Made by a program: the position numbers and the translations under genes. DNA of 64,000 nt from Capsulimonadaceae bacterium (lineage in GTDB: Bacteria; Armatimonadota; Armatimonadia; Armatimonadales; Capsulimonadaceae): the NCBI GenBank assembly GCA_965215505.1, contig OZ244065.1:4288001-4352000 (forward strand), written 5' to 3'. How positions within the stretch are numbered: position 1 is the stretch's first letter; every line of letters starts with the position of its first letter. The notes beneath the pieces are model-generated. The model was not told the DNA's origin. It was given only the letters and a program-made list of their open reading frames with translations, and did not search any database. Positions 19,464 through 63,963 of this stretch are shown here, one piece after another.

Positions 19464-19499
19464 TCTGCCTCCCAATTCCGAGGGGCCTTGCCCCACCCT

Positions 19500-25589: not shown

Positions 25590-25937
25590 CGCAAAATCGT
25601 GAAACAAACGCCACCGGCGCTTGTCTCACGGTTTGGGAACAGCCCCGAACGCTGCAAACCCCCCGCCGCGCTCCCAATGATGGTGAGGCGGCACGCATCC
25701 GGTGATGCCCTCGAACGCACAACAGCGGGACCGACCCGCGCGAGGCGGCACCGCGACACGCGAGGCGATCTGGAAATCTCTGCCCCGGATCTGCAAGGCA
25801 ACATGGATACTTGCGGACGAAAGGACGGCGAGGACCGACCGTTAGCCTATCGCGCTCTGCCAATCCGCGCTGACCGTTCCTTCTGGCGTCGAGGCTTGTG
25901 CCGGGGTGCGAATGTTCATCGCAAGGAGAAACGCTCC

Positions 25938-28058
25938 ATGAAGAAGTCTTTAGTGCTTCTCGCCGGTGCCAGCATGGCCTTCCTTGGCCTGCCCGCCGTG
26001 TCCCATGCTCAGGCGGCCAGCGGCCCGTTCGCTGACGTCCCCACCGACCACTGGGCCTACCAGTCGGTGGACACCCTCCAGAAGGCCGGCATCGTGATCG
26101 GCTACCCCGACGGCACCTACGGTGGCCGCCGGCCCATGACCCGCTACGAGTTCGCCGTCGCCATCGCCCGCCTGCTGGCCCGGCAGCCCGCCGCCGCCCC
26201 CGCCCCCGACCTGTCGGGACTGGACGCGCGGATCAGCGCCAACGCCGCCGCCATCGACGCCCTGCGGACCCTGGTGAACGGCTTCGCCCCCGAGCTGACC
26301 CGGCTCGGCCAGGACGTCGCCGCCATCAACGCCCGCCTGGACGGCCTGGAGGCCCGCGTCAACGCGCTCAATGACCGGCTGAACAAGGATGAGGGCATCC
26401 TCGGCTCGGTCGTGGATGAGCAGCGCCGCGTCAAGGTCAATGGTACGGTGACCCTCATCGCGCTGGCCGAAAATACGCGCCGCAATGGCAAGGCCTTCAC
26501 CGACGAGAACGGCGTCGTCCAGGGCCGGACCGGCTCCAAGGCGCTCCTCCAGTCCTCGGACGTCTACCACGACATCCTGCTCAACATCCGCGGCAAGCTC
26601 TCGGACACCGCCACCGCGAATGTTGACCTGGACTTCGGCAACTATCTGAGCCAGGTCGGCAACACGGCCGCCTTCCCCGGCTACTCCGCCGGCGGGGCCG
26701 CCCCGTCCGTCCTGTCGCCCGGCAGCCTGACCGCCGCCAACCAGTACGCCAACGTCTACAAGGCCTACCTGGATGCCGCCGTCAAGCTCGGACCTCTGGG
26801 CGGTGCCGAACTGCTCGTGGGCCGCTTCGGCAACCAGTACACCCGCTACACCTTGAAGCAGGTGGACGCCGACATCTACACCAACCTGATCCAGACCGAC
26901 TCCGGTGACATCATCGGCGACGGCGCTGCGGTCAACTTCAAGCTCGGCCCGGCCCATGTGAACGCCTTCGCGATCAAGGACACTGCCATCCAGTTCTCCG
27001 AGCTGTACGGCGGCTCCCAGGGGACGCAGTTCAACGCCGCCGTGCCCGCCACGCCCGGCAACCCGTTCGCGGTGGGAACGCCCGCCTTCTTCTCCAACAC
27101 CCAGACGCGGCCCGGCGGCCTGATTGCCGCCAACCATGCGGCCACCCTGGATGAAGGGGTCGGCGGCCGCGTGACCTTCGGCGCCCCCGAGGGCGCGGTC
27201 CTGGGCGCGACCGTCGAGTACTTCGGCCTCAGCAACCGCACCAACAACGGCCTGAGCGCCCTTGACGGCGTGACCGACCCGAACAAGTCCACCCAGCTCA
27301 CCGGGCTGGGCCAGGGCAACGGCCAGTACAACCGCCTGTCGGTGTACGGCGCGGACTTCAACGGTGCCCTGCCGTTCGGCCTCCCCGGCGTCAAGAAGGG
27401 CGGCATCCTGATCGATGCCAACTATAACGTCTCCGCTGAGGGCCTCGGCCACGGCTTCGCCAATATCGGCTCGGGCTACCGCTACCAGTCCACCGACGAC
27501 CAGATCGGCTTCTCCGTCGCCGGAGTCCAGATCAAGGGCGGCTACCAGTACGTCGGACCCGAGTACTCGGCTCCCGGCTACTGGGGTCGGCTCGGCGCCT
27601 GGAGCAATCCGACGAACGTCCGTGGCCCGGTCGTGTCCGCCAAGTATGCGCTCACCCGCAAACTCAGCCTGAACGCCGACGGCGAGTTCTACAAGGCCGC
27701 CTACGGGTCCAACAGCAACGGTACGCCGATCAACTCGCCGCTGCACCAGAACGACCACGTCAGCCGCTACCAGGTCGGCCTGGGCTACGGCCTGACCAGC
27801 GCCTACGGCGTTGACCTCGGCTACGAGGACGTCCGCTACGACCTGCGGAACAACGGCGGCTCGCTCGCCGCCGCCGGTAAGCCTGACGAGAACTACGTCA
27901 ACATCGGCATCGGCCACACGATCAGCCCGAACGCCAGCGTCAAGCTGCTGTACCAGATCGTCCACTACGACGACAAGGGCACCGGCTTCGACCCGACGGC
28001 GGGCGGCGGCAAGACGGACGGCAACGTCGCGCTCGGCCAGTTCCAGCTCAAGTTCTAG
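25938..28058 (+). CDS. SLH-domain outer-membrane porin (OmpM-like peptidoglycan tether)
   Basis: Signal peptide, SLH FADVPTDHWAY...GYPDG...TRYEFA, coiled coil, beta-barrel ending QFQLKF; AAGGAG SD. Confidence 0.9.
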   Translation: MKKSLVLLAGASMAFLGLPAVSHAQAASGPFADVPTDHWAYQSVDTLQKAGIVIGYPDGTYGGRRPMTRYEFAVAIARLLARQPAAAPAPDLSGLDARISANAAAIDALRTLVNGFAPELTRLGQDVAAINARLDGLEARVNALNDRLNKDEGILGSVVDEQRRVKVNGTVTLIALAENTRRNGKAFTDENGVVQGRTGSKALLQSSDVYHDILLNIRGKLSDTATANVDLDFGNYLSQVGNTAAFPGYSAGGAAPSVLSPGSLTAANQYANVYKAYLDAAVKLGPLGGAELLVGRFGNQYTRYTLKQVDADIYTNLIQTDSGDIIGDGAAVNFKLGPAHVNAFAIKDTAIQFSELYGGSQGTQFNAAVPATPGNPFAVGTPAFFSNTQTRPGGLIAANHAATLDEGVGGRVTFGAPEGAVLGATVEYFGLSNRTNNGLSALDGVTDPNKSTQLTGLGQGNGQYNRLSVYGADFNGALPFGLPGVKKGGILIDANYNVSAEGLGHGFANIGSGYRYQSTDDQIGFSVAGVQIKGGYQYVGPEYSAPGYWGRLGAWSNPTNVRGPVVSAKYALTRKLSLNADGEFYKAAYGSNSNGTPINSPLHQNDHVSRYQVGLGYGLTSAYGVDLGYEDVRYDLRNNGGSLAAAGKPDENYVNIGIGHTISPNASVKLLYQIVHYDDKGTGFDPTAGGGKTDGNVALGQFQLKF

Positions 28059-50054: not shown

Positions 50055-50382
50055 GCCCCCATTGTACCGCACTTGGCGGCCGAGCGCAAGCGGAGGCGGC
50101 TGTGGGTCAGGGCGACCGCATACCGACGTTGTTTCCGTGCCATGACCCGCCGATGCCAGGAATGGCACGGCTATCCCTGCTGAGTGCCGCAGATTTGAGT
50201 GCCGCGAAGCGGTACTTCCTGGCGTCCTCGCCGCGTAGCCGTGCGTTTCAACGCACGGTCGGGGTTGGATGCGATTGCCCTGGCAAGTTTGTCTCGCCTG
50301 CCTGAAGTTTGTCCCGCCTGCCTGCCGGGTAGAGTCAAGCACAAACCGTTTCGCAGTCGCTCTTCAAAGGAGAAATCTCACC

Positions 50383-51225
50383 ATGGCACATCTGTATGCT
50401 TCATTCGCGGACGCCTCGCTGGCGGAAAAGGCGGCAGGCGCCCTGCTCGATCATGGGGTCCGCCAGGAAGACCTCAGCCTGGTCGCGAACGACCAGTATG
50501 GCCAGACGCGCGAGGCTTATACCACCCACGGCGTGAACCCCCAGTACGGTACGGCAGCCGCCGAGGCGGGCGTCGGGGGCATCGGCGATCGACTGGCGCA
50601 GACCGGCGACCGGCTCGCCGGGTCGGTCACGGGCGCGTTCGGCGCGGAAGGCGCGGCGGCCGGTTACGAGACGGCGGCGGCGGAGCGCGCGGGCAACGTG
50701 GGCGTCGGGACGGTCGGGACCATCGGTAACGCGGGCGTCTACAGCACCGGCACCCCGACGACGGCCGTTGCCGGGGACCTCAACCCGCTGGACCACGGCG
50801 GCCCGGACTCGGCCATGAGCCAGGGCGATGCTGCTACGGCGGCCAAGCACGGCATCAGCACGACGACTCCCGAGGACGCGGGCGAAGGCGCGGTCAAAGG
50901 GACGGGCATCGGCCTTGGGGTCGGAATCCTGGCCAGCCTGGCGGCCCTGACTGTGCCCGGCATCGGCCTGGTCCTTGGCGGCGGCGCTCTCGCCGCTGCC
51001 CTGGGCGCGACGGCCCTGACGGCGGGCGCGGGGGCCATCGCGGGTGGCGCGACCGGCTACCTCAAGGACCAGGGCGTCCCGCACGAGGCGGCCGAGCGCT
51101 ACCACGGCACGGTGGCTGGCGGCGGTGCGGTTCTCTCGGTCAACGTCCCCTCGGGCGACGTTGACCAGGCGACGGCCGAGGGCGTCCTGTCCAAGTACGG
51201 CGCGGCGGACGTGAACGCCTACTGA
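50383..51225 (+). CDS. General stress protein-like membrane protein
   Basis: N-terminal ASFADASLAEKAAGALL..G...EDLSLV, Gly-zipper TM region, GVPHEAAERY. Confidence 0.7.
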   Translation: MAHLYASFADASLAEKAAGALLDHGVRQEDLSLVANDQYGQTREAYTTHGVNPQYGTAAAEAGVGGIGDRLAQTGDRLAGSVTGAFGAEGAAAGYETAAAERAGNVGVGTVGTIGNAGVYSTGTPTTAVAGDLNPLDHGGPDSAMSQGDAATAAKHGISTTTPEDAGEGAVKGTGIGLGVGILASLAALTVPGIGLVLGGGALAAALGATALTAGAGAIAGGATGYLKDQGVPHEAAERYHGTVAGGGAVLSVNVPSGDVDQATAEGVLSKYGAADVNAY

Positions 51226-51432: not shown

Positions 51433-52986
51433 ATGCCCGCCGGGCCACTGATCGGAATTGATATCGGGTCGCAGCAGATCAAGATCGCCGAGTTGCGCCC
51501 CGGCAAGACCGGGCTGACCGTCACCGCCCTCGGCCTCGGGCCGACTCCGGCCGGCGTCGTCCAGAACAGCATCATCACCGACCCCGCCGCCATGGGGGCC
51601 GCCATCAAGAGCCTCATGCGCGAGAGCGGCATCACCATCAAGCGCGCCGTCGGCTGCATCACCGGCCAGAACGCCGTCGTCATCCGCATCATCGAAGTCC
51701 CGCGTATGACCGACGCCGAGCTGAAAGAAACCATGAAGTGGGAGGTCGAGCGGCACGTCCCGTTCGCGCCCTCCGAGACCGTCCTGGACTACCAGCCGCT
51801 CGTCCCGCGCACGGCTGAGGCCGCCAGTGGCCCCAACATGGAGGTGCTGCTCGCCGTCGCACAGCAGGACGCCGTTTCCAACTACATTGACACCCTGTTC
51901 GCGGCGGGCCTCGACCCCGTCGCCATTGACATCGAGCCGCTGGCGATCTCGCGGGCCATCCTGGACCTCCAGAACGGCGTCCCCGTCGCCCGGCCCCAGG
52001 TGCCGTTCGGTGAGCCGGCCTTCGCCGACGGCCCCGAAGAGACGGTCGCCATCGTCAACATCGGTGCGGCCAACACCGACATCGCCATCTTCCAGGGCGG
52101 CCAGCTCACCTTCCCCCGCTCCCTGCCCCTCGCCGGGGACAGCCTGACGCGCGCCATCGCCGAGGCGATGCAGTACACCATGGAACAGGCCGAGCGCGTC
52201 AAGCGCGACTACGCCGTCGTCCAGCTCGACCGCATGGCCGTTTACACCGGCACCGCCTACGAGGAGGGCTACGAGACGCCGCAGTTCCAGGATGAGGACA
52301 ACTTCAATCTCGGCGACGACAACCCGTTCGACCTCGGCGGGCAGAGCGCCGAATTCGGCAACGCCTTCGGCACCCCCTTCGGCGGAGCCTCCGATGCGCC
52401 CCTCGGCGGCACCGCCTTCGGCGGCGGTCCTGCCTTCGACGACCAGGAGCGGACTCAGCCCATCGAGCGGCGCACGCTCAATCTCGCCCGGCCCGCGACC
52501 TCCGACGCGCCCCCCGCCTTCATGCCGCCCACCGACGATGCCGGGTTTGGGATGGCGGGTGCGGGCGGCGGCCCGGACGAGTCCAAGCTGCGTGACGACA
52601 TCTTCGAAGCCATCGCGCCCGTCCTGGGCGAGCTGGCCTCCGAGATCCGGCGCTCCTTCGACTACTACCGCAGCCGGGGCGCGCAGGTGTCCATTGACCG
52701 TGTGCTGCTGACCGGCGGCAGTGCTGGCCTGGCGAACCTCGCCGCCTTCCTCCAGAACGAGCTGCAAGCGCCGGTCGCCGTCGCCAGCGCGCTCACCGCC
52801 CTCCCGGTCACGTCCAAGCACTTCGACCCGTCCTACCTGCCGACCATCGGACCCGCCTTCACCATCGCCGTCGGCCTGGCCGCGCGGGACGTCGTCTTCG
52901 GCGCGAACCCGATGCCCAAGAAGCCCAAGCCGGTCAAGGCGGCCAAAGTGGCTGCCGGATCGGTCACGGCCCCCCCGGCTTCCTAA
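51433..52986 (+). CDS. pilM: Type IV pilus assembly protein PilM
   Basis: IGIDIGS, VNIGA, EIRRSFDYY, LTGGSA, AVGLAAR; about 110-aa acidic insert. Confidence 0.9.
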   Translation: MPAGPLIGIDIGSQQIKIAELRPGKTGLTVTALGLGPTPAGVVQNSIITDPAAMGAAIKSLMRESGITIKRAVGCITGQNAVVIRIIEVPRMTDAELKETMKWEVERHVPFAPSETVLDYQPLVPRTAEAASGPNMEVLLAVAQQDAVSNYIDTLFAAGLDPVAIDIEPLAISRAILDLQNGVPVARPQVPFGEPAFADGPEETVAIVNIGAANTDIAIFQGGQLTFPRSLPLAGDSLTRAIAEAMQYTMEQAERVKRDYAVVQLDRMAVYTGTAYEEGYETPQFQDEDNFNLGDDNPFDLGGQSAEFGNAFGTPFGGASDAPLGGTAFGGGPAFDDQERTQPIERRTLNLARPATSDAPPAFMPPTDDAGFGMAGAGGGPDESKLRDDIFEAIAPVLGELASEIRRSFDYYRSRGAQVSIDRVLLTGGSAGLANLAAFLQNELQAPVAVASALTALPVTSKHFDPSYLPTIGPAFTIAVGLAARDVVFGANPMPKKPKPVKAAKVAAGSVTAPPAS

Positions 52987-53049
52987 AGGGCCGTCCCGAA
53001 ACCGACCCGTCCGAGAGACACCCGCCCGAGAGACACCCGAGAGATCACA

Positions 53050-54204
53050 ATGCTCCGAATCAACCTGCTGCCCCCCTATGTGACGCAGAGGCGTCTTACC
53101 AAGCGCCTCATACCGGTGTTCGCCCTGCTGCTGCTGGCGTGCATCGCTCTGCCCCTCTTCCTGTATGCCAACATGAAGGCGCACCTGAACGACATAACGC
53201 AGCAGGCGGAGGCGGACGAGACGGCCAAGGCCGCCAATGACGCCCTGGATGCCCAAGCCGCCAGCACGACGGCGAAAGTGCAGCCCATCCTGGACAAAGT
53301 GAACTTCGTTGACGGGGTCCACAAGTACAACCGTGACCAGGTCACCACGCTCGTCGCCGTCGCGAACCAAAGCCCCAAGAAGAGCTTCATCTACAGCGGC
53401 ATGGCCCCCGGCGCGGGCTACTCGACCATGACCATCAACGCCTACTCGCCCAGCGTCGAGGAAGCCGGCCGCTACCTCGAGGCGATGTACCAGCAGCCCG
53501 CCTTCACCTCGGTCGCCGTGGACAAGATCCCCGGCTACCCCGACAATGTCCAGCACCGGTGGTATCTCGGCCCGATCAAGCCTCAGTACATGGTGTTCGC
53601 CGACGGCGCTTCGGCGTCCGGCGGCGGTGCCGCCGCCGGCGGCTATCCCGGTGGCGGCGGCGGCGCTGCCACCGCCACGGCGGGCGGCTTCAATGCAGCC
53701 AGCCTCGCTCTGAACGGACCCAACAATATCCCGCCCGGCGTCGGCCCGCCCCCGCCTGAGCTGATCGGCGGCCTCGCCACGGGCGGCGGTGCCGCAAGCG
53801 GCGGCTATCCCGGCAGCGGCGGTGGCGGCGGTTACCCCGGCGGTGGGGGCGGAGCGCAGGCCGGTGGCGGCGGCTACAGCCCGAACTTCCTGCGAATCGC
53901 CCTGGCCGGCGTCAGCCCCTTCGCCACCCCTGACGTGATCGCGCGCATTCTGAGGAACAAGATGCGTCAGGTCCACATGGTGACCATCCCCAAGGGCTTC
54001 AACGTCACCGTGACGGCGGGCATCAACAAGCCTTACGCCCCGCTGACCGCACCGACGCCCCCCGGCGGCGGACCGGCGGCGGGCGGTGCGCCGGGCGGCT
54101 TCGGCGGCGGTGCAGGCGCTTACCCCGGCGGCGGCGGTGCGCCCGGCGGCTACCCCGGTGGGGGTGCCCCCGGCGGCTATCCCGGAGGCGCGGCGTCAGG
54201 CTGA
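53050..54204 (+). CDS. pilN: PilN-like protein with GYPG-rich tracts
   Basis: RINLLP PilM-binding motif, TM, coiled coil; follows pilM. Confidence 0.75.
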   Translation: MLRINLLPPYVTQRRLTKRLIPVFALLLLACIALPLFLYANMKAHLNDITQQAEADETAKAANDALDAQAASTTAKVQPILDKVNFVDGVHKYNRDQVTTLVAVANQSPKKSFIYSGMAPGAGYSTMTINAYSPSVEEAGRYLEAMYQQPAFTSVAVDKIPGYPDNVQHRWYLGPIKPQYMVFADGASASGGGAAAGGYPGGGGGAATATAGGFNAASLALNGPNNIPPGVGPPPPELIGGLATGGGAASGGYPGSGGGGGYPGGGGGAQAGGGGYSPNFLRIALAGVSPFATPDVIARILRNKMRQVHMVTIPKGFNVTVTAGINKPYAPLTAPTPPGGGPAAGGAPGGFGGGAGAYPGGGGAPGGYPGGGAPGGYPGGAASG

Positions 54205-54220
54205 CGCTCAAGGAGACCCA

Positions 54221-55054
54221 ATGAAAACAGCGCGCCTCAGTCCCGTCGTCGTCGCCGCCGTCGGCACTGTACTATCCCTCCTGGCGATCGCCCTGATCTT
54301 CTTCCTGATGATCAAGCCGACGCAGGACGACACCGTGACCCAGCAGGCACGTCTTGACGCCGCCGCCCCCGGCACCGACCCGGAAGATCGGGAAGCAGGG
54401 CTTGCCCGGAACAAGAAGACGGCCCAGGCCAAACTCGCCCAGGCCAAGGTCAATGTGCAGAAAACGCAGATGCAGTGGGCACAGGTCGAAGCCGCAATCA
54501 TGCCTCCGTTCGACGTGAGCAACCGCCGCAAAGCGTTCCGGCAGCTCACCTATGAGCTGACGCACAACCTCGCGCCCGATCTACAGAAGCAGCTCACGGC
54601 CGGGGGCGTCACCTCGTCCACGAGGTTCGCACTGCCGCCGCCGCCCACCAGTCCGAACGACCCGATGATCCGGCCCGGCGTGATCGAGATCCCGCTCGGC
54701 ACGGTCACCGTCAACGGCGACTTCCGGCACATCCTGGCGAACTTCAACGACTGGCAGTATTTCAACCGCCTGGTCAAAGTAGACGGCCTGACCTTGACGG
54801 GCAACAGCCCGTACATGCAGGGGAGCTACACCGCGACGCTGTACATCTTCCCACAGGGTGACACCAATCCCGAGCCGCCCCTCGCCAAAGCGGGCGGGGC
54901 CGGCGGAGCCGGCGCACCCGGTGGCGGCGGCAGCTATCCCGGCGGCGGCGGCGGCGGCAGCTATCCCGGCGGCGGAGGCCCCCCCCCCGGTGCTGGAGGC
55001 CCTGGCGGCTACCCCGGCGGCGGTGGCCCCGGAGCCTACCCCGGCGGCCACTGA
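54221..55054 (+). CDS. pilO: PilO-like protein with GYPG tail
   Basis: TM, coiled coil, VNGDFRHIL..F...FNRLVKVDGL ferredoxin-like pattern; third gene of the operon. Confidence 0.7.
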   Translation: MKTARLSPVVVAAVGTVLSLLAIALIFFLMIKPTQDDTVTQQARLDAAAPGTDPEDREAGLARNKKTAQAKLAQAKVNVQKTQMQWAQVEAAIMPPFDVSNRRKAFRQLTYELTHNLAPDLQKQLTAGGVTSSTRFALPPPPTSPNDPMIRPGVIEIPLGTVTVNGDFRHILANFNDWQYFNRLVKVDGLTLTGNSPYMQGSYTATLYIFPQGDTNPEPPLAKAGGAGGAGAPGGGGSYPGGGGGGSYPGGGGPPPGAGGPGGYPGGGGPGAYPGGH

Positions 55055-55174
55055 GAAGAATGGAGTTCGGCGCGTTAAGTCTTACGCTAAAGTTTAACGC
55101 GCCTGCATTGAAGGCTTTCCCGTTGGGAACACTCAGAACGGGTATGACCAACGGAAAGCGAGGGAATTGTCTGC

Positions 55175-56191
55175 ATGGACTGGTTCAAAGATAAGAAAAA
55201 CCTGCCGATCGTGGTGGCTCTGGCCGTCGTCGTGTTCCTGGGGGCGGGCGGCCTGATCGCCATGGAACTCGGCCTGTTCAACGGCGGCGCGGCGACGCCC
55301 ACGGCCTCCGCCCCGCCCAGCGGCGCGGGCTATCCGGGTGGTCCTGCCGCCGCCCCCGGTCCTGCCGCCTCTCTCGGTGCGGGTGGCTACCCAGGTGCGC
55401 GCCCGGCGGGCCGTCCCACCCGTGGCGCGGCAGCCGCCGCCGCAAAGGCGTCCCGTCCGGCCACCCCCGGCGCGGTGGTCACCGCCGTGAAGGGGCCTGT
55501 CAACCCGATGACCAGCGCGGACCCGTTCGCCCTCCCCGGCCCGCACAAGGCCGTCGCTTCGGCTGGTGGCCCGAACGTCGCCGGCATGCGGCCCCCCCTG
55601 CGGGACACCCTGCCGCCCCTCAACCTGTTCACGCTGCGCCCGCCGACCCCGCAGGTTGCGAGCAGCCTGACCCTCCCCAATGGGGGGGACGAGACGCTGG
55701 CCGGGACCCGCGTTTCCGGCATCGTGACCGCCGCCGACGGCATCTTCGCCGTACTTGACGTCAATGGAAGCTCACAGACCGTCAAGCCGGGTGACTCTCT
55801 GCCCGGCGGCAGCAAAGTCGCCTCGATTCAGTCCACCGGCGTTACCCTGCACACGCCCGAGGGGAACACGATTACCGTGCCCCTGTCTAACGGTCCGCCC
55901 CAGCAGAACCCGCAGCCCGGTTACGGCGGCGGCTTCGGGGGCGGCGGCTATGGCGGTGGATATCCCGGTGCCGGCGGCTATGGTGGCGGGTATCCGGGTG
56001 CCGGCGGCTTCGGCGGTGGTGGCGGCTACCCCGGTGGTGGCGGCTTCGGCGGCGGCGGGTATCCGGGTGCCGGCGGCTTCGGCGGCGGCGGTGGCTTCGG
56101 CGGCGGTGGCGGCTACCCCGGTGGTGGCGGCTTCGGCGGCGGTGGCGGCGGTTACCCCGGCGGCGGTGGGGGAGCGGGTGCGCCCGAGTAG
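55175..56191 (+). CDS. PilP/GspC-like membrane-anchored protein with GYPG/GF tail
   Basis: TM, ADPF motif, RVSGIV...AVL...VKPGD...VASIQ beta-domain; fourth gene of the operon. Confidence 0.6.
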   Translation: MDWFKDKKNLPIVVALAVVVFLGAGGLIAMELGLFNGGAATPTASAPPSGAGYPGGPAAAPGPAASLGAGGYPGARPAGRPTRGAAAAAAKASRPATPGAVVTAVKGPVNPMTSADPFALPGPHKAVASAGGPNVAGMRPPLRDTLPPLNLFTLRPPTPQVASSLTLPNGGDETLAGTRVSGIVTAADGIFAVLDVNGSSQTVKPGDSLPGGSKVASIQSTGVTLHTPEGNTITVPLSNGPPQQNPQPGYGGGFGGGGYGGGYPGAGGYGGGYPGAGGFGGGGGYPGGGGFGGGGYPGAGGFGGGGGFGGGGGYPGGGGFGGGGGGYPGGGGGAGAPE

Positions 56192-56204
56192 AGAGAGGAA
56201 CACG

Positions 56205-56957
56205 ATGAACAGGTCTATTTTCTCTCTCCTCGTTCCCGTCCTTCTGGCTGGGGGCGGCCTGGCGGCACGGGCACAGACCGGGGCAGATTCCAAGCCGGTC
56301 ACGCTCAACGTCTCGCAGGTCCCCATACAGACGGTCCTGAAGACGCTTTTCAACGGCGCTGGCGTCCGCAGCTTCGTGATAGACGCGGACGTCCCGCGCA
56401 CGGCACTCGTCGGCTCGATCAGCCTGAGCGGCGTTCCGTTCTCGGTCGCGCTCAAGCAGGTCCTGGGGGCGGTCAGCCCGCCCTTGGTCGCCGAACTCCA
56501 GGACGGCATTTACCACGTCCGAACTAGTGCGTCCGCGCCGCCGGACTTTGGGCCGCAGGCTGGTTTTCCCCCGGCCGATGCCGGACAGAACAACATCTAC
56601 AAGATTCGCATCAGGCACTATGATGCGGGCATGATTGCGGACGCCCTGACCCGCCGCGGAGGCATCATCCAGCTGCCGCCGAACTTCGTCATTCCGTCGA
56701 GCGCGAGCGTGGCGGGTGGGCCGACCGGCCCGAACATAACGACGGTGGGCGCGGCGGCCGGCCAGCCCCCGGCGGCTCCAAACGGCGGCGGGCTTCAGAA
56801 CGGCACGGCGACCGGCGCGAACGTCCTGCCGCCCGGCGTCAAGCGCATCTTCATCCTCGCGAGTGACAACTCTCTGGTGGTCGAGGCCACCGCCCAGGGC
56901 TACGAAAACCTGACCGACGAGCGCCTGCTCTCCGGCGGGTACACGCCAGTCTATTAA
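56205..56957 (+). CDS. Secreted secretin N-terminal-module protein (N0 + N3-like, no barrel)
   Basis: Signal peptide, KPVTLNVSQVPIQTVL; LPPGVKRIFILASDNSLVVEAT matches secretin LPDGVTRIFALQSNNSLLVQAT. Confidence 0.7.
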   Translation: MNRSIFSLLVPVLLAGGGLAARAQTGADSKPVTLNVSQVPIQTVLKTLFNGAGVRSFVIDADVPRTALVGSISLSGVPFSVALKQVLGAVSPPLVAELQDGIYHVRTSASAPPDFGPQAGFPPADAGQNNIYKIRIRHYDAGMIADALTRRGGIIQLPPNFVIPSSASVAGGPTGPNITTVGAAAGQPPAAPNGGGLQNGTATGANVLPPGVKRIFILASDNSLVVEATAQGYENLTDERLLSGGYTPVY

Positions 56958-57000
56958 AGGCTCTCTTCGACGGCTTTATCGAAAGAAAAAGGAAAAACCC

Positions 57001-57816
57001 ATGAAAATCCGATACACGCGACGTCATGCGGCCCTCGCCCTTGGTGCCCTGGCCCTGCTCGGCGGCTCGGTCGTGGCCACCCCCGCACGGGCGCAGGACG
57101 CCAGCGCGGCGTCCGACAAGCCCATCACGCTGAACCTCCAGAACGTCCCCATCCAGACCGCCCTGAAGCTGCTGTTCAACGCTGCGGGCATCCACAACTA
57201 CACCATCGCTTCGGACGTACAGGGGACCGCCAACATTAACAGCGCCAATGTTCCCTTTACGATCGCCCTGACTAACCTGCTGAACTCGGTCGGCGCGGCC
57301 TTCACCGTCGAGAACGGCAGCTACAACGTCGCCATCAAGCGGCCCACGCCGGCACCCCCCGTGGTCGTCACCCCGCAGCCGAACGGGAACACGATCGTGG
57401 GCGGCAGCCAGGACTCGACGGCCAGCACGGCGGATCAGCCCAAGCGCTTCTACCCGATTCCGGTCAACAAGTACGACGCCTACTACCTTGCCCTCCTGCT
57501 CGGCTCGCAGGGCCTCGTCCGCGTTGACGTCAACGGCATCCTGCCCTCCCAGTTCAGCCAGGCCACCGGGCAGGGCCAGGGCGGTCAGGGCGGCCCCGCC
57601 GGCGGCATCACCTCGGTCGGTGGCCAGGGCGGTCGCGGCGGCGGCTTCGGCGGCGGTGGCGGCTACGGCGGTGGCGGCGGCGGCTTCGGCAGCGGCGGCG
57701 GTGCCCGCGGCAGCGTCGGCGGCGGCGGCGGCGGCTTCGGCGGCTTTGCCATCATCAACCCCGCCGGTTCGCAGAACACAAGCCCGCAGGGCACGCCCCC
57801 CCAGGGCACGAACTAA
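57001..57816 (+). CDS. Second secreted secretin N-terminal-module protein with Gly-rich tail
   Basis: Signal peptide, KPITLNLQNVPIQTAL, VPFTIAL; paralogous to 56205-56957. Confidence 0.7.
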   Translation: MKIRYTRRHAALALGALALLGGSVVATPARAQDASAASDKPITLNLQNVPIQTALKLLFNAAGIHNYTIASDVQGTANINSANVPFTIALTNLLNSVGAAFTVENGSYNVAIKRPTPAPPVVVTPQPNGNTIVGGSQDSTASTADQPKRFYPIPVNKYDAYYLALLLGSQGLVRVDVNGILPSQFSQATGQGQGGQGGPAGGITSVGGQGGRGGGFGGGGGYGGGGGGFGSGGGARGSVGGGGGGFGGFAIINPAGSQNTSPQGTPPQGTN

Positions 57817-58006
57817 TCGGACCCCGGTCCCCCCACCCGTCTTGGCGGGGGGACCCTACCAATCATTTAATCAGGCCCGCGTTGCGCGGCGACGACGAAG
57901 CGCTCCATTCTGCACTCATCTCCCTGTCTGACCCCCCACTCAAGTCGGGGCAACCGACTTCTCGCGACTTCGCAACGCTTCCATTTTCCGTTCAGGAGGA
58001 CATCTC

Positions 58007-59941
58007 ATGGGTTTATATCGAAGACGATCGGGCTTAACCGCCGCGTGCGGCCTGCTGGCTCTGGCGGGGCTGGCGTCCGCCGCCGCCCCGGCCCGGAGCG
58101 CCGAGGACGCCCCCCCCACGGCGAACGGCCGTGGGATCAGCATGGACGTGGCCGGTGCCGACATGCACACAGTCGTCCACATGCTGGAGCAGCAGGCCCA
58201 TGTGGATGCCCTCGTCCATGATGGCGACAAGCCGTTCAAGCCCATCAATCTCCATCTGGATGAGGCGTCCCTGCCGAAAGCGCTGAGGACCATCGCGGCC
58301 AGTGCGGGCGCGAAAGTCAGCAAGAATGAGGACGGGGTCTACGTCTTCGAGCCTCTCACCGCCGACAGTCCGGCCGCCCCGGCAAGCCCTGCACCCGCCG
58401 TCCAGGCCCCCGCCGCGCCGCAGCAACCCGCCGACAACCGCCCCGAGGCGCGCTACCCGTCTGGGTCGCTGCACTGGCAGTCCATCGTCCTCCAGCATGC
58501 CGTCCCGAATGACATCCTGAGGATCATGCACTGGGACCAGGACCTCGTCGAACTCGACCCCTTCAAGCCCGTCGAGGCCCCCCAGCAGCGCCCCAACGTG
58601 TCCTCATTCGGCGCGAACACGATTCTCCCGTCCAGCCTCGCCGGTCTCGGCGGCAACGGCTTCCCGAACAACAACTACAATAACGGCGGCTACCAGAACG
58701 GTGGCTATAACAACGGCGGCTACCAGAATGGCGGCAACCCGTCCGTGCCGCTCGGCACCGGCAATGGTGGTCCCGCCGGCGCGAACTACGCGAACTCCGC
58801 CCACCGCAGCGCTGAACCCGGCTCCCCCGGCCAGGCCAACCAGTTCCCCGGCGGCGGCTTCGGCGGCGGCTTCGGCGGCGGCCAGTTCGGGGGTGGCGGC
58901 GGCCAGTTCGGCGGCGGCGGCCAGTTCGGGGGTGGCGGCGGCCAGTTCGGCGGCGGCGGTCAGTTCGGCGGCGGCGGTCAGTTCGGGGGTGGCGGCGGCC
59001 AGTTCGGCGGCGGCCAGTTCGGCGGCCAGGGTGGGCCGGGCGGGGCGGGCGGACGGGCCCAGCTTCCCGACGGTGTGACGCGCATCTTCGCCCTGCAAAG
59101 CAACAACTCCCTGCTGGTCCAGGCGACCGTGGATGGATACAACACGGTCAAAAACCTGGTCCGCATCCTCGACATCGCCCCGCGCCAGGTCCAGATCAAG
59201 GTCGAGTTCGTCACCGCCAGCGTCGTGGACGTGGATAACCTCGGCGTCAACTTCGACCTCGTGCCCTATCCGGGTCTGGAACTCGCCACGAACCAGGGCA
59301 GCAGCGCCATCAGCACGACGGCCGCGCCGACCTTCCTGCAATACGCCACCGGCAACATCGTCGCCCAGCTTTTCCAGACGCTCACCCGCACGCGCGGCAA
59401 GGTGGTCCAGGCGCCGATCATCACGACGACGAACAACGTGGCGGCCAGCATCAACGTGTTCACCCAGATCCCGTTCTTCACCTCCTCCAGCGTGGTCACG
59501 GGCGGTCTGAACAACAACACGGTTAACAACACGCAGGCCAACTTCATCACCCTCAACACGGGCCTGACGATTGCGCCGCGCATCAACAGCGACGACTCGG
59601 TCACGATGAACCTCTCGCCGACGATCACTGACGTCACCGGCCAGCCCGCCGTCGGCGGCATCCCGCCGACCGTCACCCAGAGCATCACCACCCTCCGCAC
59701 CGTCCGCAGCGGCGACACCATGGTCCTCGGCGGCCTGGTCCGCAAGCAGGAAACGACCTCGACCCAGCGCATCCCGATCCTCGCCGACATCCCGGTCTTG
59801 GGCGGCATCTTCCGCACCCGCAACAAGCAGATCAACGACACCGAGCTGCTGATCTTCGTCACGCCGACCATCATCGGCGACAGCAACGACAGCGCGACCG
59901 CCAATGCCAACGGCGGCCAGAGCGTTACCGTCACGCCGTAA
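58007..59941 (+). CDS. Secretin (PilQ/GspD family)
   Basis: LDIAPRQVQI, LTIAPRIN, VRSGDTMVLGGL, IPILADIPVLGGIFR, ELLIFVTPTII. Confidence 0.92.
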   Translation: MGLYRRRSGLTAACGLLALAGLASAAAPARSAEDAPPTANGRGISMDVAGADMHTVVHMLEQQAHVDALVHDGDKPFKPINLHLDEASLPKALRTIAASAGAKVSKNEDGVYVFEPLTADSPAAPASPAPAVQAPAAPQQPADNRPEARYPSGSLHWQSIVLQHAVPNDILRIMHWDQDLVELDPFKPVEAPQQRPNVSSFGANTILPSSLAGLGGNGFPNNNYNNGGYQNGGYNNGGYQNGGNPSVPLGTGNGGPAGANYANSAHRSAEPGSPGQANQFPGGGFGGGFGGGQFGGGGGQFGGGGQFGGGGGQFGGGGQFGGGGQFGGGGGQFGGGQFGGQGGPGGAGGRAQLPDGVTRIFALQSNNSLLVQATVDGYNTVKNLVRILDIAPRQVQIKVEFVTASVVDVDNLGVNFDLVPYPGLELATNQGSSAISTTAAPTFLQYATGNIVAQLFQTLTRTRGKVVQAPIITTTNNVAASINVFTQIPFFTSSSVVTGGLNNNTVNNTQANFITLNTGLTIAPRINSDDSVTMNLSPTITDVTGQPAVGGIPPTVTQSITTLRTVRSGDTMVLGGLVRKQETTSTQRIPILADIPVLGGIFRTRNKQINDTELLIFVTPTIIGDSNDSATANANGGQSVTVTP

Positions 59942-59991: not shown

Positions 59992-60073
59992 CTGTCCCTA
60001 GGCCGCATCGGGTATAATCACCCCCAGAGTCTCTCATCATCGTTTGGTCCAGTCCTTAGTCCAGGAGTCCACC

Positions 60074-61261
60074 GTGTTCCGATTTCTTACCGCCGGCGAG
60101 TCCCACGGCCCCGCCCTCACCGCCGTCATCGAGGGCGTCCCCGCCGGGCTGCCGGTCCTCGCCGGGCCGATCAACGCCCAGCTCAAGCGCCGCCAGGGCG
60201 GCTACGGGCGCGGCGCGCGCCAGAAGATCGAGTCGGACACAGTCGAGATCCTGTCCGGCGTCCGCTTCGGGCTGGCCCTCGGCAGTCCCCTCACCCTCGT
60301 CGTCCGCAACCGAGACTGGGCCAACTGGACCGTAAAGATGTCCGCCGAACCCCTCCCCGAAGGCCAGGCCCCGCCCCCCATCACCGTCCCGCGCCCCGGC
60401 CACGCCGACTACACCGGCATGATGAAGTATGGCCATGACGACCTGCGGAACACCCTGGAGCGCTCCTCCGCCCGCAACACCGCCACCCTCGTCGCCGTCG
60501 GCGCGGTCGCCCGCGCCCTGCTGGCCGAGTTCGGCGTCTCGGTCGCCTCCCATGTCGTCAACATCGGCGGCGTCCGGGTCAACGCCGACCACATTGATCT
60601 GCGCCAGGTCGCCGCGCTGGCAGAAGACAGCCCCGTCCGTGTCGCCGACCCCGAGGCCGAGGCGCGCATCATCGCCGCCATTGATGAGGCCAAGTACCGG
60701 GGCGACACCCTGGGCGGCACCTTCGAGGTCGTCACGCTGGGCCTCCCCGTCGGGCTAGGCTCCTACTCGCAGTGGGACACGCGCATCGACGGCAAGCTGG
60801 CCCAGGCGCTCATGGCGATCCAGGCCATCAAGGGCGTCGAGATCGGCATCGGCTTCGGGGCCGCCGACGTCCCTGGCTCCCAGGTCCATGATCCCTTCTT
60901 CTATGACGACGCTGAGGGCGGCTCGGACGCCCGCTTCCGGCGCGGCTCCAACAACGCCGGCGGGACGGAGGGCGGTATCACCAACGGCGAACCACTCGTC
61001 ATCCGGGCCGTGATGAAGCCCATCGCCACCCTGATGAAGCAGCTCCCCTCGGTCAACCTCGAAACCAAAGAGGGCGTCCCCGCCTTCGCCGAGCGGTCCG
61101 ACGTCTGCGCCGTCCCCGCCGCCGCGGTCGTCGGCGAGGCGATGGTCGCCCTCGTGCTTGCCCAGGAGATGTGCCTCAAATTCGGCGGCGACAGCCTCGC
61201 CGAGATGCGCGCCAACTACGACGCCTACCAGCACACCGTTTCAGGGCGCATGAGCAAGTAG
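60074..61261 (+). CDS. aroC: Chorismate synthase
   Basis: TAGESHG, RPGHAD, ERSSAR, NNAGG.EGGITNG, ERSD; GTG start after GGAG. Confidence 0.96.
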   Translation: MFRFLTAGESHGPALTAVIEGVPAGLPVLAGPINAQLKRRQGGYGRGARQKIESDTVEILSGVRFGLALGSPLTLVVRNRDWANWTVKMSAEPLPEGQAPPPITVPRPGHADYTGMMKYGHDDLRNTLERSSARNTATLVAVGAVARALLAEFGVSVASHVVNIGGVRVNADHIDLRQVAALAEDSPVRVADPEAEARIIAAIDEAKYRGDTLGGTFEVVTLGLPVGLGSYSQWDTRIDGKLAQALMAIQAIKGVEIGIGFGAADVPGSQVHDPFFYDDAEGGSDARFRRGSNNAGGTEGGITNGEPLVIRAVMKPIATLMKQLPSVNLETKEGVPAFAERSDVCAVPAAAVVGEAMVALVLAQEMCLKFGGDSLAEMRANYDAYQHTVSGRMSK

Positions 61262-61291
61262 GGGAAACGAAGAGCTGAGAGGAGAACCGAC

Positions 61292-61570
61292 ATGACTGTG
61301 ACGCTGGAACTTTCCCCCGAAACCGAGGCAGACCTGCGCGAGCGTGCGGGAAAGTGCGGCCAGTCCGTTGCCGACTATCTGTTGACCTTGACCGTATTAA
61401 GTCTCTATCGTGACTTATCTTTATCTGAGAGGGAGAGGGACATCGTCAGAGAACGAATAGCAGACCGGCTCGCAGGCGATAAGGGGATGCTGCTAGCGGA
61501 CTACCAATCTGAGGTCGTGGCAAAGCGTGAGGCGCGTAAGCGGCAGCAAGAAGCCGAAACCGCCGCATGA
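61292..61570 (+). CDS. Orphan antitoxin-like small protein
   Basis: MTVTLELSPETEADL..RA...GQSVADYL; GAGGAG SD; lower GC. Confidence 0.55.
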   Translation: MTVTLELSPETEADLRERAGKCGQSVADYLLTLTVLSLYRDLSLSERERDIVRERIADRLAGDKGMLLADYQSEVVAKREARKRQQEAETAA

Positions 61571-61592
61571 GCGGAGGCATACATCCTTGACT

Positions 61593-62258
61593 ATGCCTGA
61601 CTTCTCGGGCGCGTTCTGGTTCTACGCGCAAGAGGCTCTGCAAACATGGGGCGGTCGTAGCGTCTCCGTTGAAGTCCGCGAGGTGGGCACACTCACTCTG
61701 ACCTCGGGCAAGATCGTTGCCTGTGATGGCCTGATTCCGAGCGACGAGCCGTTCACGCAAACAGTCACCCCTGGCTCCTACCCTGTCGTCTTGTGCCTGG
61801 TCAGCGGCGACAAAGGGTGGCCCATCATTGCCTGTGCCATGCTGCGCTTCAAAGACGAGATGCCGCGCACCTGGAAACTTGCGACGGTCGCCGGTCAGAG
61901 CGAGGTTCCTGACCGGAAGGGTGAGATTGTCGGCTATGGAGTAGACACCGGGGACGGATGCTTCGCTGACCTTGACGCGATGCGGGAGTTGATAAGTCTC
62001 CAGGAGCCATATGAGCGGTTCAGAGACGCGGTGACTAAGTCTCGCTCAGACTGGTTTGACTATAACCTGGACGTTGAACCGCCCACCAACATCATCACCT
62101 TTTCGTCCGGCGAGGGGGACGGGACTTATCCTTCTTATTTCGGCTACGACGCAGATGGCGATGCCCTTTGCCTTGCGACTGACTTTGGCATCATTGCGCC
62201 CCTGCCGGAGACACACACAGAAGCGCCGAGCAAGTATCAACTGAGGCTCGACCTTTGA
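61593..62258 (+). CDS. DUF4241-family protein
   Basis: LTSGKIVACD, PGSYPV, YGVDTG, SGEGDGTYPSYFG. Confidence 0.75.
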   Translation: MPDFSGAFWFYAQEALQTWGGRSVSVEVREVGTLTLTSGKIVACDGLIPSDEPFTQTVTPGSYPVVLCLVSGDKGWPIIACAMLRFKDEMPRTWKLATVAGQSEVPDRKGEIVGYGVDTGDGCFADLDAMRELISLQEPYERFRDAVTKSRSDWFDYNLDVEPPTNIITFSSGEGDGTYPSYFGYDADGDALCLATDFGIIAPLPETHTEAPSKYQLRLDL

Positions 62259-62836
62259 CGGTAATACGGAACATAGTCCTCATCGGCTTCATGGGAACGG
62301 GCAAAAGCGCTGTGGGCCGCGTCCTCGCCCGGCGGACGGGCTGGCATCACCTGGACACCGACGCCGAGATCGAAAGGGCGGCGGGCCGGACCATCCCGGA
62401 GATATTCACCGAAGAAGGCGAACCCGCCTTTCGCGCCCGCGAGGCCCTTCTCCTCTCCTCTCTGGCTCCCCCAGAATTAGGTTTTAGTGGGGTGGGGGCG
62501 GGGGGGGCCTCTCTCATCCTCTCCACCGGCGGCGGGACGCCCCTGCGCCCCGAGAACGCCGCCTTGCTGAAACGGATCGGCACCGTCGTCTGGCTCCAGG
62601 TCGCGCCCCCGGCCATCCTCGCCCGCGTCCAGCGCAGCCTGCACGAGCGGCCCCTGCTGGCCGGGCATCGGGACAATCCCTTGGGGCGCATCGAGGCCCT
62701 CCTTGCCGACCGCGCGCCGCGTTATGCCGCCCTGGCCGACTACACCCTGGACACCTCGGACTGCGCGAACTCGGAAGAAGCCGCCGACCGGCTGGGACGC
62801 CTGCTCGCACCCGATTTTGACACATCTCCCTCATGA
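62255..62836 (+). CDS. aroK: Shikimate kinase
   Basis: GFMGTGKS, DTD, GEPAFR, STGGG, RPLL. Confidence 0.93.
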   Translation: MTVIRNIVLIGFMGTGKSAVGRVLARRTGWHHLDTDAEIERAAGRTIPEIFTEEGEPAFRAREALLLSSLAPPELGFSGVGAGGASLILSTGGGTPLRPENAALLKRIGTVVWLQVAPPAILARVQRSLHERPLLAGHRDNPLGRIEALLADRAPRYAALADYTLDTSDCANSEEAADRLGRLLAPDFDTSPS

Positions 62837-63963
62837 CAAATACCACACAGACCGTCCGCGTCAGCCTCAGCGACCGCTCCTATGACATCCTGGTCGGGCG
62901 CGGCCTGCTTGCCCGTCTAGGAGAGGAAACCGCCGCCCGCGTGGCGGGCGGCAAGGCGGCGGGCCGGTCGGCCTTCATCCTCAGCAGCGCGGCCATCGCT
63001 AACCGCTACGGCGCGTCCGCCCGCGAAAGCCTGGAAGCGGCGGGGTTCCGGGTCCACACCGCCCTCATCCCCGCCGGGGAGCGGGCCAAGACATTGGCCT
63101 CGGTCAGTCGCCTGTACGCCGCCCTGTATGACCAGGCCGCCGACCGGCGCACCGTCGTCGTCGCATTGGGCGGGGGCGTCATCGGCGACATGGCGGGCTT
63201 CGTCGCCGCCACCTACACGCGCGGTCTGGACTTCGTGCAGGTGCCGACCACCCTGCTCGCCCAGGTGGACAGCAGCGTCGGCGGCAAGACCGGCGTGAAC
63301 TTCGGGTCGGCCCAGAACTCGGCCAAGAACCTGATCGGCGCGTTCCACCAGCCCCGCCTCGTCATTATTGACCCGGACACGCTGGGCACCCTTCCTCTCC
63401 GGGAACGGCGCTCCGGCCTCGCCGAAGTCATCAAATATGGTATAATAGGCGACAAAGATTTCTTTACGCTCCTGGAGCGCGAGTCGGCGGGCCTGCTCGA
63501 CCTCTCTTCGCCCCACCTGGAACACGTCCTGGCCCACTCCTGCGCGCTCAAAGCCCGCGTCGTGGAGCAGGACGAACACGAGGGCGGCCTGCGCGCCATC
63601 CTGAACTTCGGCCACACCGTCGGCCACGCCCTGGAGTCGCTGACGCGCTACCGGGTCTACACGCACGGCGAGGCCATCGCATTAGGCATGGTCTCAGCTT
63701 CGCTGATCGGCGAGGAAGTCGGCGTGACCAAGCCGGACGATACCGCTGCCCTGACCGCCCTCCTGCGCGCCTCGGGCTTCGCCGTCCGCCTGGACCCGGC
63801 GCATTCGGTGGACGAGATCACGCGGCTCCTGGCCTGGGACAAGAAGAGCGTCGGCGGGTCGGCCCGCTTCGTGCTGATGGAGGAGATCGGGCGGGCGACG
63901 CTCGGCCACCGGGTCCCCGAATCCGCCATCCGCCGGGCACTGGAGCGGCAGCGAAGTTTGTAG
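62833..63963 (+). CDS. aroB: 3-dehydroquinate synthase
   Basis: GGGVIGD, PTTLLAQVDSSVGGKT, LNFGHT.GHALE, HGEA, DKK. Confidence 0.96.
   Translation: MTNTTQTVRVSLSDRSYDILVGRGLLARLGEETAARVAGGKAAGRSAFILSSAAIANRYGASARESLEAAGFRVHTALIPAGERAKTLASVSRLYAALYDQAADRRTVVVALGGGVIGDMAGFVAATYTRGLDFVQVPTTLLAQVDSSVGGKTGVNFGSAQNSAKNLIGAFHQPRLVIIDPDTLGTLPLRERRSGLAEVIKYGIIGDKDFFTLLERESAGLLDLSSPHLEHVLAHSCALKARVVEQDEHEGGLRAILNFGHTVGHALESLTRYRVYTHGEAIALGMVSASLIGEEVGVTKPDDTAALTALLRASGFAVRLDPAHSVDEITRLLAWDKKSVGGSARFVLMEEIGRATLGHRVPESAIRRALERQRSL

Follow-up and report, generated by a model that had tools for sequence, protein, structure and literature searches.

Why do several proteins of a bacterial type IV pilus locus carry long, nearly uncharged runs of glycine spaced by phenylalanine and tyrosine, and has mutation or selection shaped them? 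We asked this of a stretch of 64,000 nucleotides from a Capsulimonadaceae bacterium (contig OZ244065.1, positions 4,288,001 to 4,352,000; the whole stretch is called the window below), in which seven co-directional genes of the + strand (51433-59941), namely pilM, pilN, pilO, a pilP-like gene, two genes whose products we call X1 and X2, and the secretin gene pilQ, are followed by aroC-aroK-aroB. An initial annotation of this DNA had proposed that the whole machine is decorated with Gly-rich, aromatic low-complexity domains, which would form a gel or elastic sleeve around the conduit. Our best reading of the tracts is that they are disordered segments selected for their composition. Comparison of homologues shows two tiers, in which the Gly/Phe tracts of PilQ and X2 appear to be the oldest and most constrained, and the tails of PilN, PilO and PilP appear to be younger and looser.

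The pilus locus and its periplasmic tracts

The locus encodes the alignment and secretin module of a type IV pilus in its Armatimonadota form. The genes, domains and tracts of the locus are listed below, with lengths in amino acids (aa) and, for models made with AlphaFold2 (AF2), the predicted local distance difference test score (pLDDT).

51433..52986 (+): PilM, 517 aa, actin-like ATPase fold (TIGR01175, E 6.4e-63; PF11104, E 1.3e-50)
52258..52587 (+): PilM insert, residues 276-385, acidic and Phe-rich (23% charged, 11% aromatic)
53050..54204 (+): PilN-like protein, 384 aa, INLLP motif, transmembrane segment, periplasmic domain
53605..53874 (+): internal Gly-rich insert of PilN, residues 186-275, GGYPG units (from alignment)
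54064..54201 (+): C-terminal tail of PilN, residues 339-384, three YPG and one GFG (motif count)
54129-54190: DNA repeat in the PilN tail, period 27, 82% matches (Tandem Repeats Finder)
54221..55054 (+): PilO-like protein, 277 aa, transmembrane segment and periplasmic domain (from position and topology)
54863..55051 (+): C-terminal tail of PilO, residues 215-277, four YPG, 49% Gly, 3% charged
55175..56191 (+): PilP-like protein, 338 aa, transmembrane anchor, Pro/Gly linker, beta domain, tail
55901..56188 (+): C-terminal tail of PilP, residues 243-338, nine Tyr and six Phe in 96 aa (from composition)
56205..56957 (+): X1, 250 aa, signal peptide, N0/STN-like domain, split N-domain
57001..57816 (+): X2, 271 aa, signal peptide, N0, linker, strand 1 and helix 1, then a Gly/Phe tract
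57568..57768 (+): C-terminal Gly/Phe tract of X2, residues 190-256 (from the homologue survey)
58007..59941 (+): PilQ, 644 aa, signal peptide, N0-like domain, Pro/Ala linker, N3 with insert, secretin barrel
58472..58525 (+): first half of PilQ N3, strand 156-161 and helix 167-173 (AF2 pLDDT ~77)
58541..59056 (+): PilQ insert, residues 179-350, between N3 helix 1 and strand 2 (AF2 pLDDT <50)
58874-59026: DNA repeat in the PilQ insert, period 57, 89% matches (Tandem Repeats Finder)
59075..59170 (+): second half of PilQ N3, strands 357-363 and 368-373, helix 375-388 (AF2 pLDDT 78-88)

PilM and PilQ score over curated family cut-offs (PilM: 212.8 bits against a cut-off of 133 for TIGR01175, and 172.7 bits against 27 for PF11104; PilQ: E 2.8e-37 and 128.3 bits against 27.5 for PF00263), and with the TIGR02515 PilQ model the secretin scores 132, under the cut-off of 284, for which reason we assign it to no subfamily. 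The PilN-like protein matched no model in Pfam (the Pfam PilN model included) or NCBIfam; its N-terminus reads MLRINLLPP, with I4, N5, L6, L7 and P8 invariant in 12 orthologues, and the INLLP motif of PilN is the element that binds PilM. The names PilO-like and PilP-like follow from position and topology only: the former has no Pfam or NCBIfam match, its gene being kept between the pilN-like and pilP-like genes in relatives, and the latter matches TIGR03021 (pilP_fam) over residues 176-225 at E 3.6e-7 and 31.2 bits, under the cut-off of 34.65.

An LptF/G permease (21703-22824, +) and an SLH-domain protein (25599-28055, +) in the window suggest a lipopolysaccharide outer membrane tethered to a wall polymer through SLH domains, and hence that this cell has an outer membrane and a periplasm. 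By hydropathy, PilN, PilO and PilP carry transmembrane anchors (residues 20-38, 9-27 and 12-30, with Kyte-Doolittle means of 2.84, 2.81 and 2.74, respectively), and X1, X2 and PilQ have signal-peptide-like N-termini; every tract except that of PilM is therefore periplasmic. PilM has no hydrophobic N-terminal segment or membrane segment. Its acidic Phe/Gly insert, which the initial annotation had listed with the other tracts, is indeed there (24 D/E in 131 aa of the insert region), and it cannot join a periplasmic mesh because PilM is cytoplasmic. A homologous insert of 64-184 aa was present in 43 of 44 aligned orthologues (23 aa in the remaining one, from a record titled Actinomycetota), and NPF, SPF and DxF motifs, NPF/DPF-like in kind, recur across the alignment. 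We therefore treat it as a feature separate from the periplasmic tracts; judging by these motifs, it is possibly a cytoplasmic short-linear-motif array for some partner.

The PilQ tract is predicted to interrupt the N3 domain between helix 1 and strand 2, as a loop fixed at both ends within one small domain. We call the domain split from the AF2 model and the fold match, not from Pfam: a Pfam scan of residues 150-215 alone gave no first half of Secretin_N, and residues 336-394, after the insert, match profile positions 25-69 of 69 (the second half of N3 as modelled matches positions 26-69 at E 4e-6 and leads into the barrel). The PilQ model aligned with solved secretins at Z 12-14.4 (VIA-align), and the InvG, GspD and PilQ structures align from model residues 151-156, the first modelled residues of those chains; in the InvG work, the secretin construct runs from residue 176 to the end, and the domain is named N3 there. 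Modelled secondary structure, structure alignments and the Secretin_N match that begins only after the insert all place the insert at the variable loop of N3. Both this tract and that of X2 were modelled at a pLDDT of 28-44 (alignments of 19 and 65 sequences, respectively), a low confidence consistent with the disorder about which the initial annotation had asked. The insert is not a pure repeat, since P248, A277 and Q279, in a conserved SVPxGxGN...QANQF segment, are invariant in 19 sequences. Among the six secretin open reading frames (ORFs) of the genome, a long tract occurs in two, PilQ and a 912-aa ORF, and none of the other four has a long one. The 912-aa secretin (genome contig 4847670-4850405) carries a 70-aa Gly/Pro/Met tract with GGMP repeats, nine Met and no aromatics.

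On the evidence of family alignment, X2 is a truncated paralogue of the N-terminal part of PilQ that breaks off at the tract and bears one of the same type (X2 family against PilQ family, hhalign probability 99.8%, E 2.3e-27, X2 residues 1-171 corresponding to PilQ 1-178); pairwise BLASTP between the two proteins was not significant. Its N0 domain, at residues 42-112, is modelled with confidence (pLDDT ~90) and residues 179-253 fall below 50. X1 is in turn a paralogue of X2 by sequence (34% identity, E 5e-18), its C-terminus resembling PilQ 353-383, the strands past the insert (55% identity, E 2e-7). The STN match of X1 is weak (1.3e-3), its insert (residues 155-207) holds one aromatic residue and zero charge, and it occurs in 14 of 51 compared loci, 11 of them distinct after removal of duplicates of one region. 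All 111 X2 homologues are unnamed or called 'hypothetical', the named sources being Armatimonadota or Fimbriimonadales, and synteny of X2 extends from Capsulimonadaceae through metagenome-assembled genomes (MAGs) labelled Chthonomonas and Fimbriimonadaceae. In the ESM Atlas the top three matches were two Armatimonadota STN clusters and one mostly viral cluster; short STN/Secretin_N proteins of other phyla score <0.9 and serve as leads only. Another ORF of the same genome with an N0-like look proved unrelated to the X2 family (hhalign probability 0.5%) and had no family match.

Composition, conservation and repeat turnover

The motif counts of the initial annotation were exact: YPG occurs in Gly tracts six times in PilN, four times in PilO and eight times in the PilP-like protein (six in the C-terminal tail and two in the N-terminal linker), the X2 tail holds four GGF and one GGY, and the 172-residue PilQ insert holds eight QFG, two GGF and three GGY, the last within NGGY. 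None of 2000 residue shuffles matched the observed counts of YPG (PilN, PilO, PilP) or QFG (PilQ), so these motifs lie above chance for the composition of the tracts. The sticker-spacer type of composition was likewise borne out, the periplasmic tracts being nearly uncharged (0.7-3% D/E/K/R vs. 10-18% in the remainder of each protein) with an aromatic every 5-7 residues; the PilP tail, for example, is 65% Gly, 15.6% aromatic and 1% charged.

To see how far this departs from Gly-rich sequence in the same genome, we compared 105 other ORFs with a Gly tract of at least 25 aa, a set that is incomplete because its filter on GC content at third codon positions lost PilP and several other Gly-rich ORFs. 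Pooled, the background tracts were 14% charged and 3.6% aromatic (vs. 1.2% and 8.7% in the four pil ORFs that passed the filter); 44/105 had no aromatic residue, and only 1/105 was both rich in aromatics (one or more per 12 residues) and poor in charge (no more than one per 30). The codons for Phe (TTC) and Tyr (TAC) lie two base changes from the dominant GGC, and Asp, Val and Cys, which lie one step away in the genetic code, are nearly missing from the tracts.

Conservation is strongest for X2 and PilQ. A tract of at least 25 aa was found in 109/111 X2 homologues, none of the 109 being free of aromatics (pooled composition G 64.6%, F 8.8%, Y 1.5%, D/E/K ~0.1%), and a tract of at least 20 aa stood at the same place in 108 of the best 120 PilQ homologues, of which three lacked aromatics. 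In a library clustered at 50% identity, 225 clusters matched the barrel at E <=1e-30; the top 150 were analysed, 122 of their representatives were full-length (at least 500 aa), and 101 of these have the tract. Tracts thus recur at the same two sites phylum-wide, down to 30-35% core identity. Aromatic density is tight (median 0.10 in X2 and 0.12 in PilQ, with spacings of 5 and 7 dominant), and the repeat unit itself differs among close relatives (GGGFN, GQGQF, GGGGNPF, GGFPG, GGQPGGF), with one hydrophobic residue in nearly every unit. In a relative of 37% GC the X2 tail is Gly/Ser/Asn-rich and uses GGA/GGT codons, yet holds ~9 Phe/Tyr in ~70 aa, which disfavours an artefact of GC content.

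The tails of PilN, PilO and PilP, counted from alignments, follow a second pattern. They are by no means absent from close orthologues: PilP tails are aromatic and nearly uncharged in 21/21 (23-96 aa; pooled F 7.2%, Y 6.9%, F+Y 14%), PilO tails carry aromatics in 31/32 (F+Y 4.6%) and PilN tails in 25/32 (F+Y 4.3%). A survey by Gly threshold had scored the PilP tail as 'absent' in four loci and the PilO tail in one; we dropped these calls, as alignment shows Gln/Asn/Pro-rich tails there. These alignments show that the aromatic PilP tail is apparently held across the order, and that the PilN and PilO tails, of Gly/Tyr/Pro type, are apparently later and looser additions, younger than the PilQ and X2 tracts. 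The internal Gly-rich insert of PilN is part of an insertion of ~130-180 aa preceding the last beta-strand (PKGFxxTVTA); by alignment it is present in Capsulimonadaceae-type orthologues and missing from four short forms of a sister family, and the long form occurs in 18/18 same-genus genomes.

The initial annotation had taken variation of codons between units as a sign of selection on the protein. Codons do vary (GGC, GGT, GGG and GGA for Gly, both TAT and TAC for Tyr); the argument drawn from them is weak, given that every tract contains imperfect tandem repeats at the DNA level by Tandem Repeats Finder (periods 18-69 bp, 67-94% matches; in the PilO tail, period 27 and 94% matches) and that strains differ by indels. 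The regularity of the motifs therefore stems partly from duplication. Contigs of near-identical strains from sequencing runs of four studies, which break at the tracts, carry in-frame changes. CGG is inserted at 54918, 54939 and 58860, three nucleotides are lost at 54892 and 55433 and 18 at 56053, in the PilP tail (contigs of two runs), and a skip of 51 nt at 54973-55025 falls in the PilO tail. The tracts thus grow and shrink by slippage, and the data show that tandem-repeat slippage makes and resizes the segments while their composition stays.

Possible functions of the tracts

We reasoned that the position of the PilQ tract could indicate what such segments do. In the InvG and PulD reports, the homologous N3 loop is variable, unmodelled and credited with the periplasmic constriction inside the channel, and the secretin lumen is described as >75 Å wide. 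On this homology the loops of PilQ would lie within the periplasmic vestibule or immediately below it. Entries of solved secretins contain 12-15 chains; a ring of 12-15 subunits would hold ~12-15 loops of 172 residues, roughly 2,000-2,600 residues with ~18 aromatics per loop and about 200 in the ring. At an average volume of ~0.1 nm³ per residue, this would be enough chain to fill several nm of channel, and the loops would therefore have to move aside for the pilus, as the N3 loop of InvG moves aside for the needle. We thus favour, tentatively and with less than even confidence, the reading that the uncharged Gly/aromatic segments act in the vestibule of the secretin as a plug or gasket that can be displaced: soft and self-adhering, the PilQ loops would block the secretin when it is empty and give way to the pilus or seal around it, and the tails of X2, PilP, PilO and PilN would add or stick to this plug and so couple the inner-membrane subcomplex to the secretin. 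Of the sleeve around the conduit in the initial annotation, the periplasmic tracts are retained, and the geometry becomes narrower, with the PilQ tract placed in the loop between helix 1 and strand 2 of N3.

Several observations weigh against a selected, plug-forming role. The DNA repeats and in-frame indels in near-identical strains mean that much of the pattern is mutational. Among the representative secretins (top 150 of 225 clusters), 21/122 have no tract, and 9 of the 101 with a tract have no F/Y/W, most of these nine carrying Leu, Ile or Met instead. The tails of PilN, PilO and PilP are highly variable: those of PilN lack any aromatic in 7/32 orthologues, and one Chthonomonas-labelled locus shows PilO-like and PilP-like tails that are free of aromatics and carry several charges, next to a PilN-like tail with one Phe. 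Gly/aromatic tracts also occur on unrelated exported proteins (DUF3500, DUF5666-like, PKD, alpha-2-macroglobulin) and may be a general linker habit of the lineage, so that the picture of a pilus machine decorated with tracts holds for its periplasmic parts and fails as a property unique to the machine. Cohesion is putative, the tracts being known from sequence and model; low pLDDT is merely consistent with disorder, and the lumen-facing geometry is borrowed from InvG/PulD by homology. In the needle-bound InvG structure the loop threads outward between N domains. Finally, an aromatic per 5-7 residues in near-pure Gly could lead to collapse or aggregation and not to a permeable mesh; the spacing of aromatics in FG-nucleoporins is sparser.

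Alternatively, the tracts could be flexible spacers, entropic bristles or elastic tethers among PilMNOP, the wall and the secretin, non-cohesive, with the aromatics only tuning compaction, a reading that we consider quite possible and still doubtful. The tracts of PilN, PilO and PilP do lie at C-termini or in linkers, a four-fold range of tail length among orthologues (PilP, 23-96 aa) and the differences between strains would suit length adaptors, the GYPGQ and GGYPG units resemble elastomeric repeats of silk, resilin and glutenin, and the SLH-domain and LptF/G proteins suggest an outer membrane tethered to wall polymer. However, the PilQ loop is fixed at both ends and cannot extend reach, unlike the free-ended C-terminal tails, and a pure spacer would need neither the aromatics found in 109/109 X2 and 105/108 PilQ tracts nor the near-total exclusion of charge, the latter being unusual for entropic linkers.

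The tracts could also be tolerated, nearly neutral low-complexity expansions, arising in a genome of 66% GC as GGC-rich microsatellites slip in surface loops and at termini. The DNA repeats in every tract, the 3-, 18- and 51-nt in-frame indels, the about 100 other ORFs with Gly tracts together with the Gly/aromatic tracts on unrelated exported proteins, and the confinement of the large PilN insert to one family all fit such an origin. Nevertheless, neutrality leaves unaccounted for the two sites kept across the phylum at low core identity, the aromatic pattern kept by the 37% GC relative where Ser and Asn replace Gly, the gap between 1.2% and 14% charged residues with just one comparable background ORF, the restriction to two of six secretins, and aromatic codons two steps from GGC; we regard it as unlikely.

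A true FG-type selective phase, in which the PilQ loops and the X2 and PilP tails would form a cohesive periplasmic plug that holds the giant channel closed and that pilus or DNA passes by local melting, goes further than the plug proposed above, and we think it distinctly unlikely. If true, it would be an independently evolved bacterial counterpart of the nuclear-pore and PEX13 barriers.

It would be improbable, in our judgement, that the aromatics anchor the machine, as AMIN or LysM domains would otherwise do, by stacking on sugars of peptidoglycan or a secondary wall polymer. Sugar binding by aromatic residues is common, the tracts are periplasmic, the envelope has an SLH protein, and a Pfam scan of PilQ returned Secretin and Secretin_N only, with no AMIN or other wall-binding domain. 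On the other hand, Pfam and NCBIfam scans detected no known carbohydrate-binding motif or fold, the N3 loop by homology faces the channel and not the wall, and Leu, Ile or Met in place of Phe in some lineages suits hydrophobic cohesion better. Least probable is a folded Gly-rich structure that AF2 failed to model (a polyglycine-II helix bundle or beta-solenoid forming a rigid extra ring or cap), for although Gly-rich folds with periodic aromatics exist and the 5- and 7-residue spacing is regular, pLDDT stays at 28-44 in both tracts despite alignments of 19 and 65 sequences, and unit length and sequence shift among close relatives and strains in a way that a defined fold could hardly tolerate.

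Known systems and genome setting

The machine is of the PilMNOPQ kind, and the PilQ insert occupies the known N3 variable-loop site; what sets it apart is the long Gly/aromatic composition conserved through the phylum. Likeness to the canonical systems (Pseudomonas, Myxococcus, Neisseria, Thermus, Vibrio) lies in gene order, the PilM and PilQ families, INLLP, the PilP-like beta domain and the downstream aro genes. On the side of difference, solved PilQ/GspD chains align by sequence to this PilQ only from ~residue 340, this PilQ consists of N0 and one N domain with no AMIN, the locus encodes two additional paralogues with an N0 domain, five of its proteins bear Gly/aromatic tracts (which model PilMNOPQ proteins lack, according to the initial annotation), and PilM has an acidic insert of 110 aa. 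The N3 variable loops of InvG (residues 217-267) and PulD (288-303), disordered or unmodelled in the empty channel and associated with the constriction, lie at the same site as the PilQ insert; in comparison with these loops of ~15-50 residues, that of PilQ has ~170, is a phylum-conserved Gly/Phe/Gln/Asn repeat, and has a homologous tract on a separate protein, X2. In an Aeromonas GspD (6i1x), the position aligned with the PilQ insert holds a short stretch rich in Gly.

The nearest functional parallel comes from Pseudomonas aeruginosa, where the periplasmic proteins SlkA and SlkB are reported to keep the type IV pilus secretin blocked up to the docking of the inner-membrane complex, and so guard the outer-membrane barrier (PMC13392014). 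Such plugging is what we propose for the PilQ insert and X2; the Slk proteins are separate proteins, likened to ours by function only. How secretin channels stay tight is an active question, to which the Pseudomonas plug proteins are a recent contribution (PMC13392014), and a phylum-wide Gly/Phe tract in the constriction loop and in the paralogue X2 offers a concrete candidate for a disordered, self-adhering gasket.

In composition the tracts resemble FG-nucleoporins and the YG domain of PEX13, for which a phase has been described (PMC9795577): all are uncharged and of low complexity, with spaced Phe/Tyr beside Gly and a density kept while the sequence turns over, and all sit, as proposed here, on an oligomeric ring that surrounds the path of a large folded substrate. 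Unlike these, the tracts described here belong to a bacterial periplasm, are 55-65% Gly and are known from sequence and model alone, and we would place them in this class by likeness only, since sequence of such low complexity carries no homology signal that could be used. We know of no transport receptors for Gly/aromatic pilus tracts. If they are cohesive, FG/YG-type phase barriers would extend from eukaryotic organelles to the bacterial periplasm; if not, they would offer a clear example from nature of how selection acts on the composition of a repeat that slippage mutates, visible from strain to phylum level. Look-alike compositions, those of spider silk (GPGGY, GPGQQ), resilin, plant glycine-rich proteins and FUS-type [G/S]Y[G/S] sequences, recur in the GGYPG, GQGYPGQ and GGFGG of the tracts; the G/S/N plus Tyr/Phe form of the low-GC relative is similar too, and the cellular context of those elastomeric and prion-like repeats is another. 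A search of the full-text literature gave no account of Gly/aromatic tracts in proteins of type IV pili or in secretins.

The genome is a single contig of 6.18 Mb with 66.5% GC. The nearest named PilQ relative is that of Capsulimonas corticalis, at just 48% identity, and the MAGs that hold related loci are titled Armatimonadota, Armatimonadales, Capsulimonadaceae, Chthonomonas or Fimbriimonadaceae. Elsewhere in the genome we found a pilB-pilT-pilC-like cluster, which would supply the extension and retraction ATPases and the platform protein (16 T2SSE matches over cut-off and 12 T2SSF matches). The order of pilQ followed by aroC is kept in relatives; the aro block spans 60044-63963 (+), with two small ORFs between aroC and aroK. 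These further genes are:

genome contig 2112644-2116644: adjacent T2SSE/T2SSF set, pilB/pilT/pilC-like
60044-61261 (+): aroC, downstream of pilQ (Chorismate_synt, 8.6e-117)
62255-62836 (+): aroK (SKI, 2.7e-34)
62833-63963 (+): aroB (DHQ_synthase, 2.7e-45)

Just upstream of pilM lies an ORF (50269-51225, +) for a Gly/Ala-rich protein of 318 aa whose C-terminal half is hydrophobic and for which Pfam and NCBIfam gave no match. A MAG labelled Janthinobacterium lividum (JBPBQB010000048.1) has an operon of the Armatimonadota type with a PilM 77-78% identical to this one; its label or binning is probably wrong. The window also encodes an 800-aa NAD-dependent epimerase/dehydratase ORF with an intein (17097-19496, -; Intein_splicing and a LAGLIDADG domain) and a small RRM-domain protein (14448-14888, -; PF00076).

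Other Gly-rich proteins of the genome include a signal-peptide protein with GGYPGG repeats and no family match, and a DUF5666-like protein of 30% Gly with GGFGGPPP units. ORFs at genome contig 4302448-4302933, 5259120-5259701 and 5304819-5305307 have Gly/Arg/Ser/Tyr tails (GGGYGGGG with Arg and Ser); these make up a separate class of Gly tract within the genome, one that is charged. A bacterial alpha-2-macroglobulin of 1546 aa (genome contig 3705936-3710573, outside the window) has an insert between its bait-region domain and A2M domain, composed of a GspG-like segment (weak Pfam T2SSG match), a GGFPGG tract and then a stretch resembling the PilQ strands past the insert (65% identity over 31 aa, E 1e-7; 73% over 73 nt at the DNA level). 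The gene after it encodes a prepilin-type DUF1559 protein, and of the 12 other same-genus genomes searched, two have the insert in large ORFs as well, at 49% and 44% identity.

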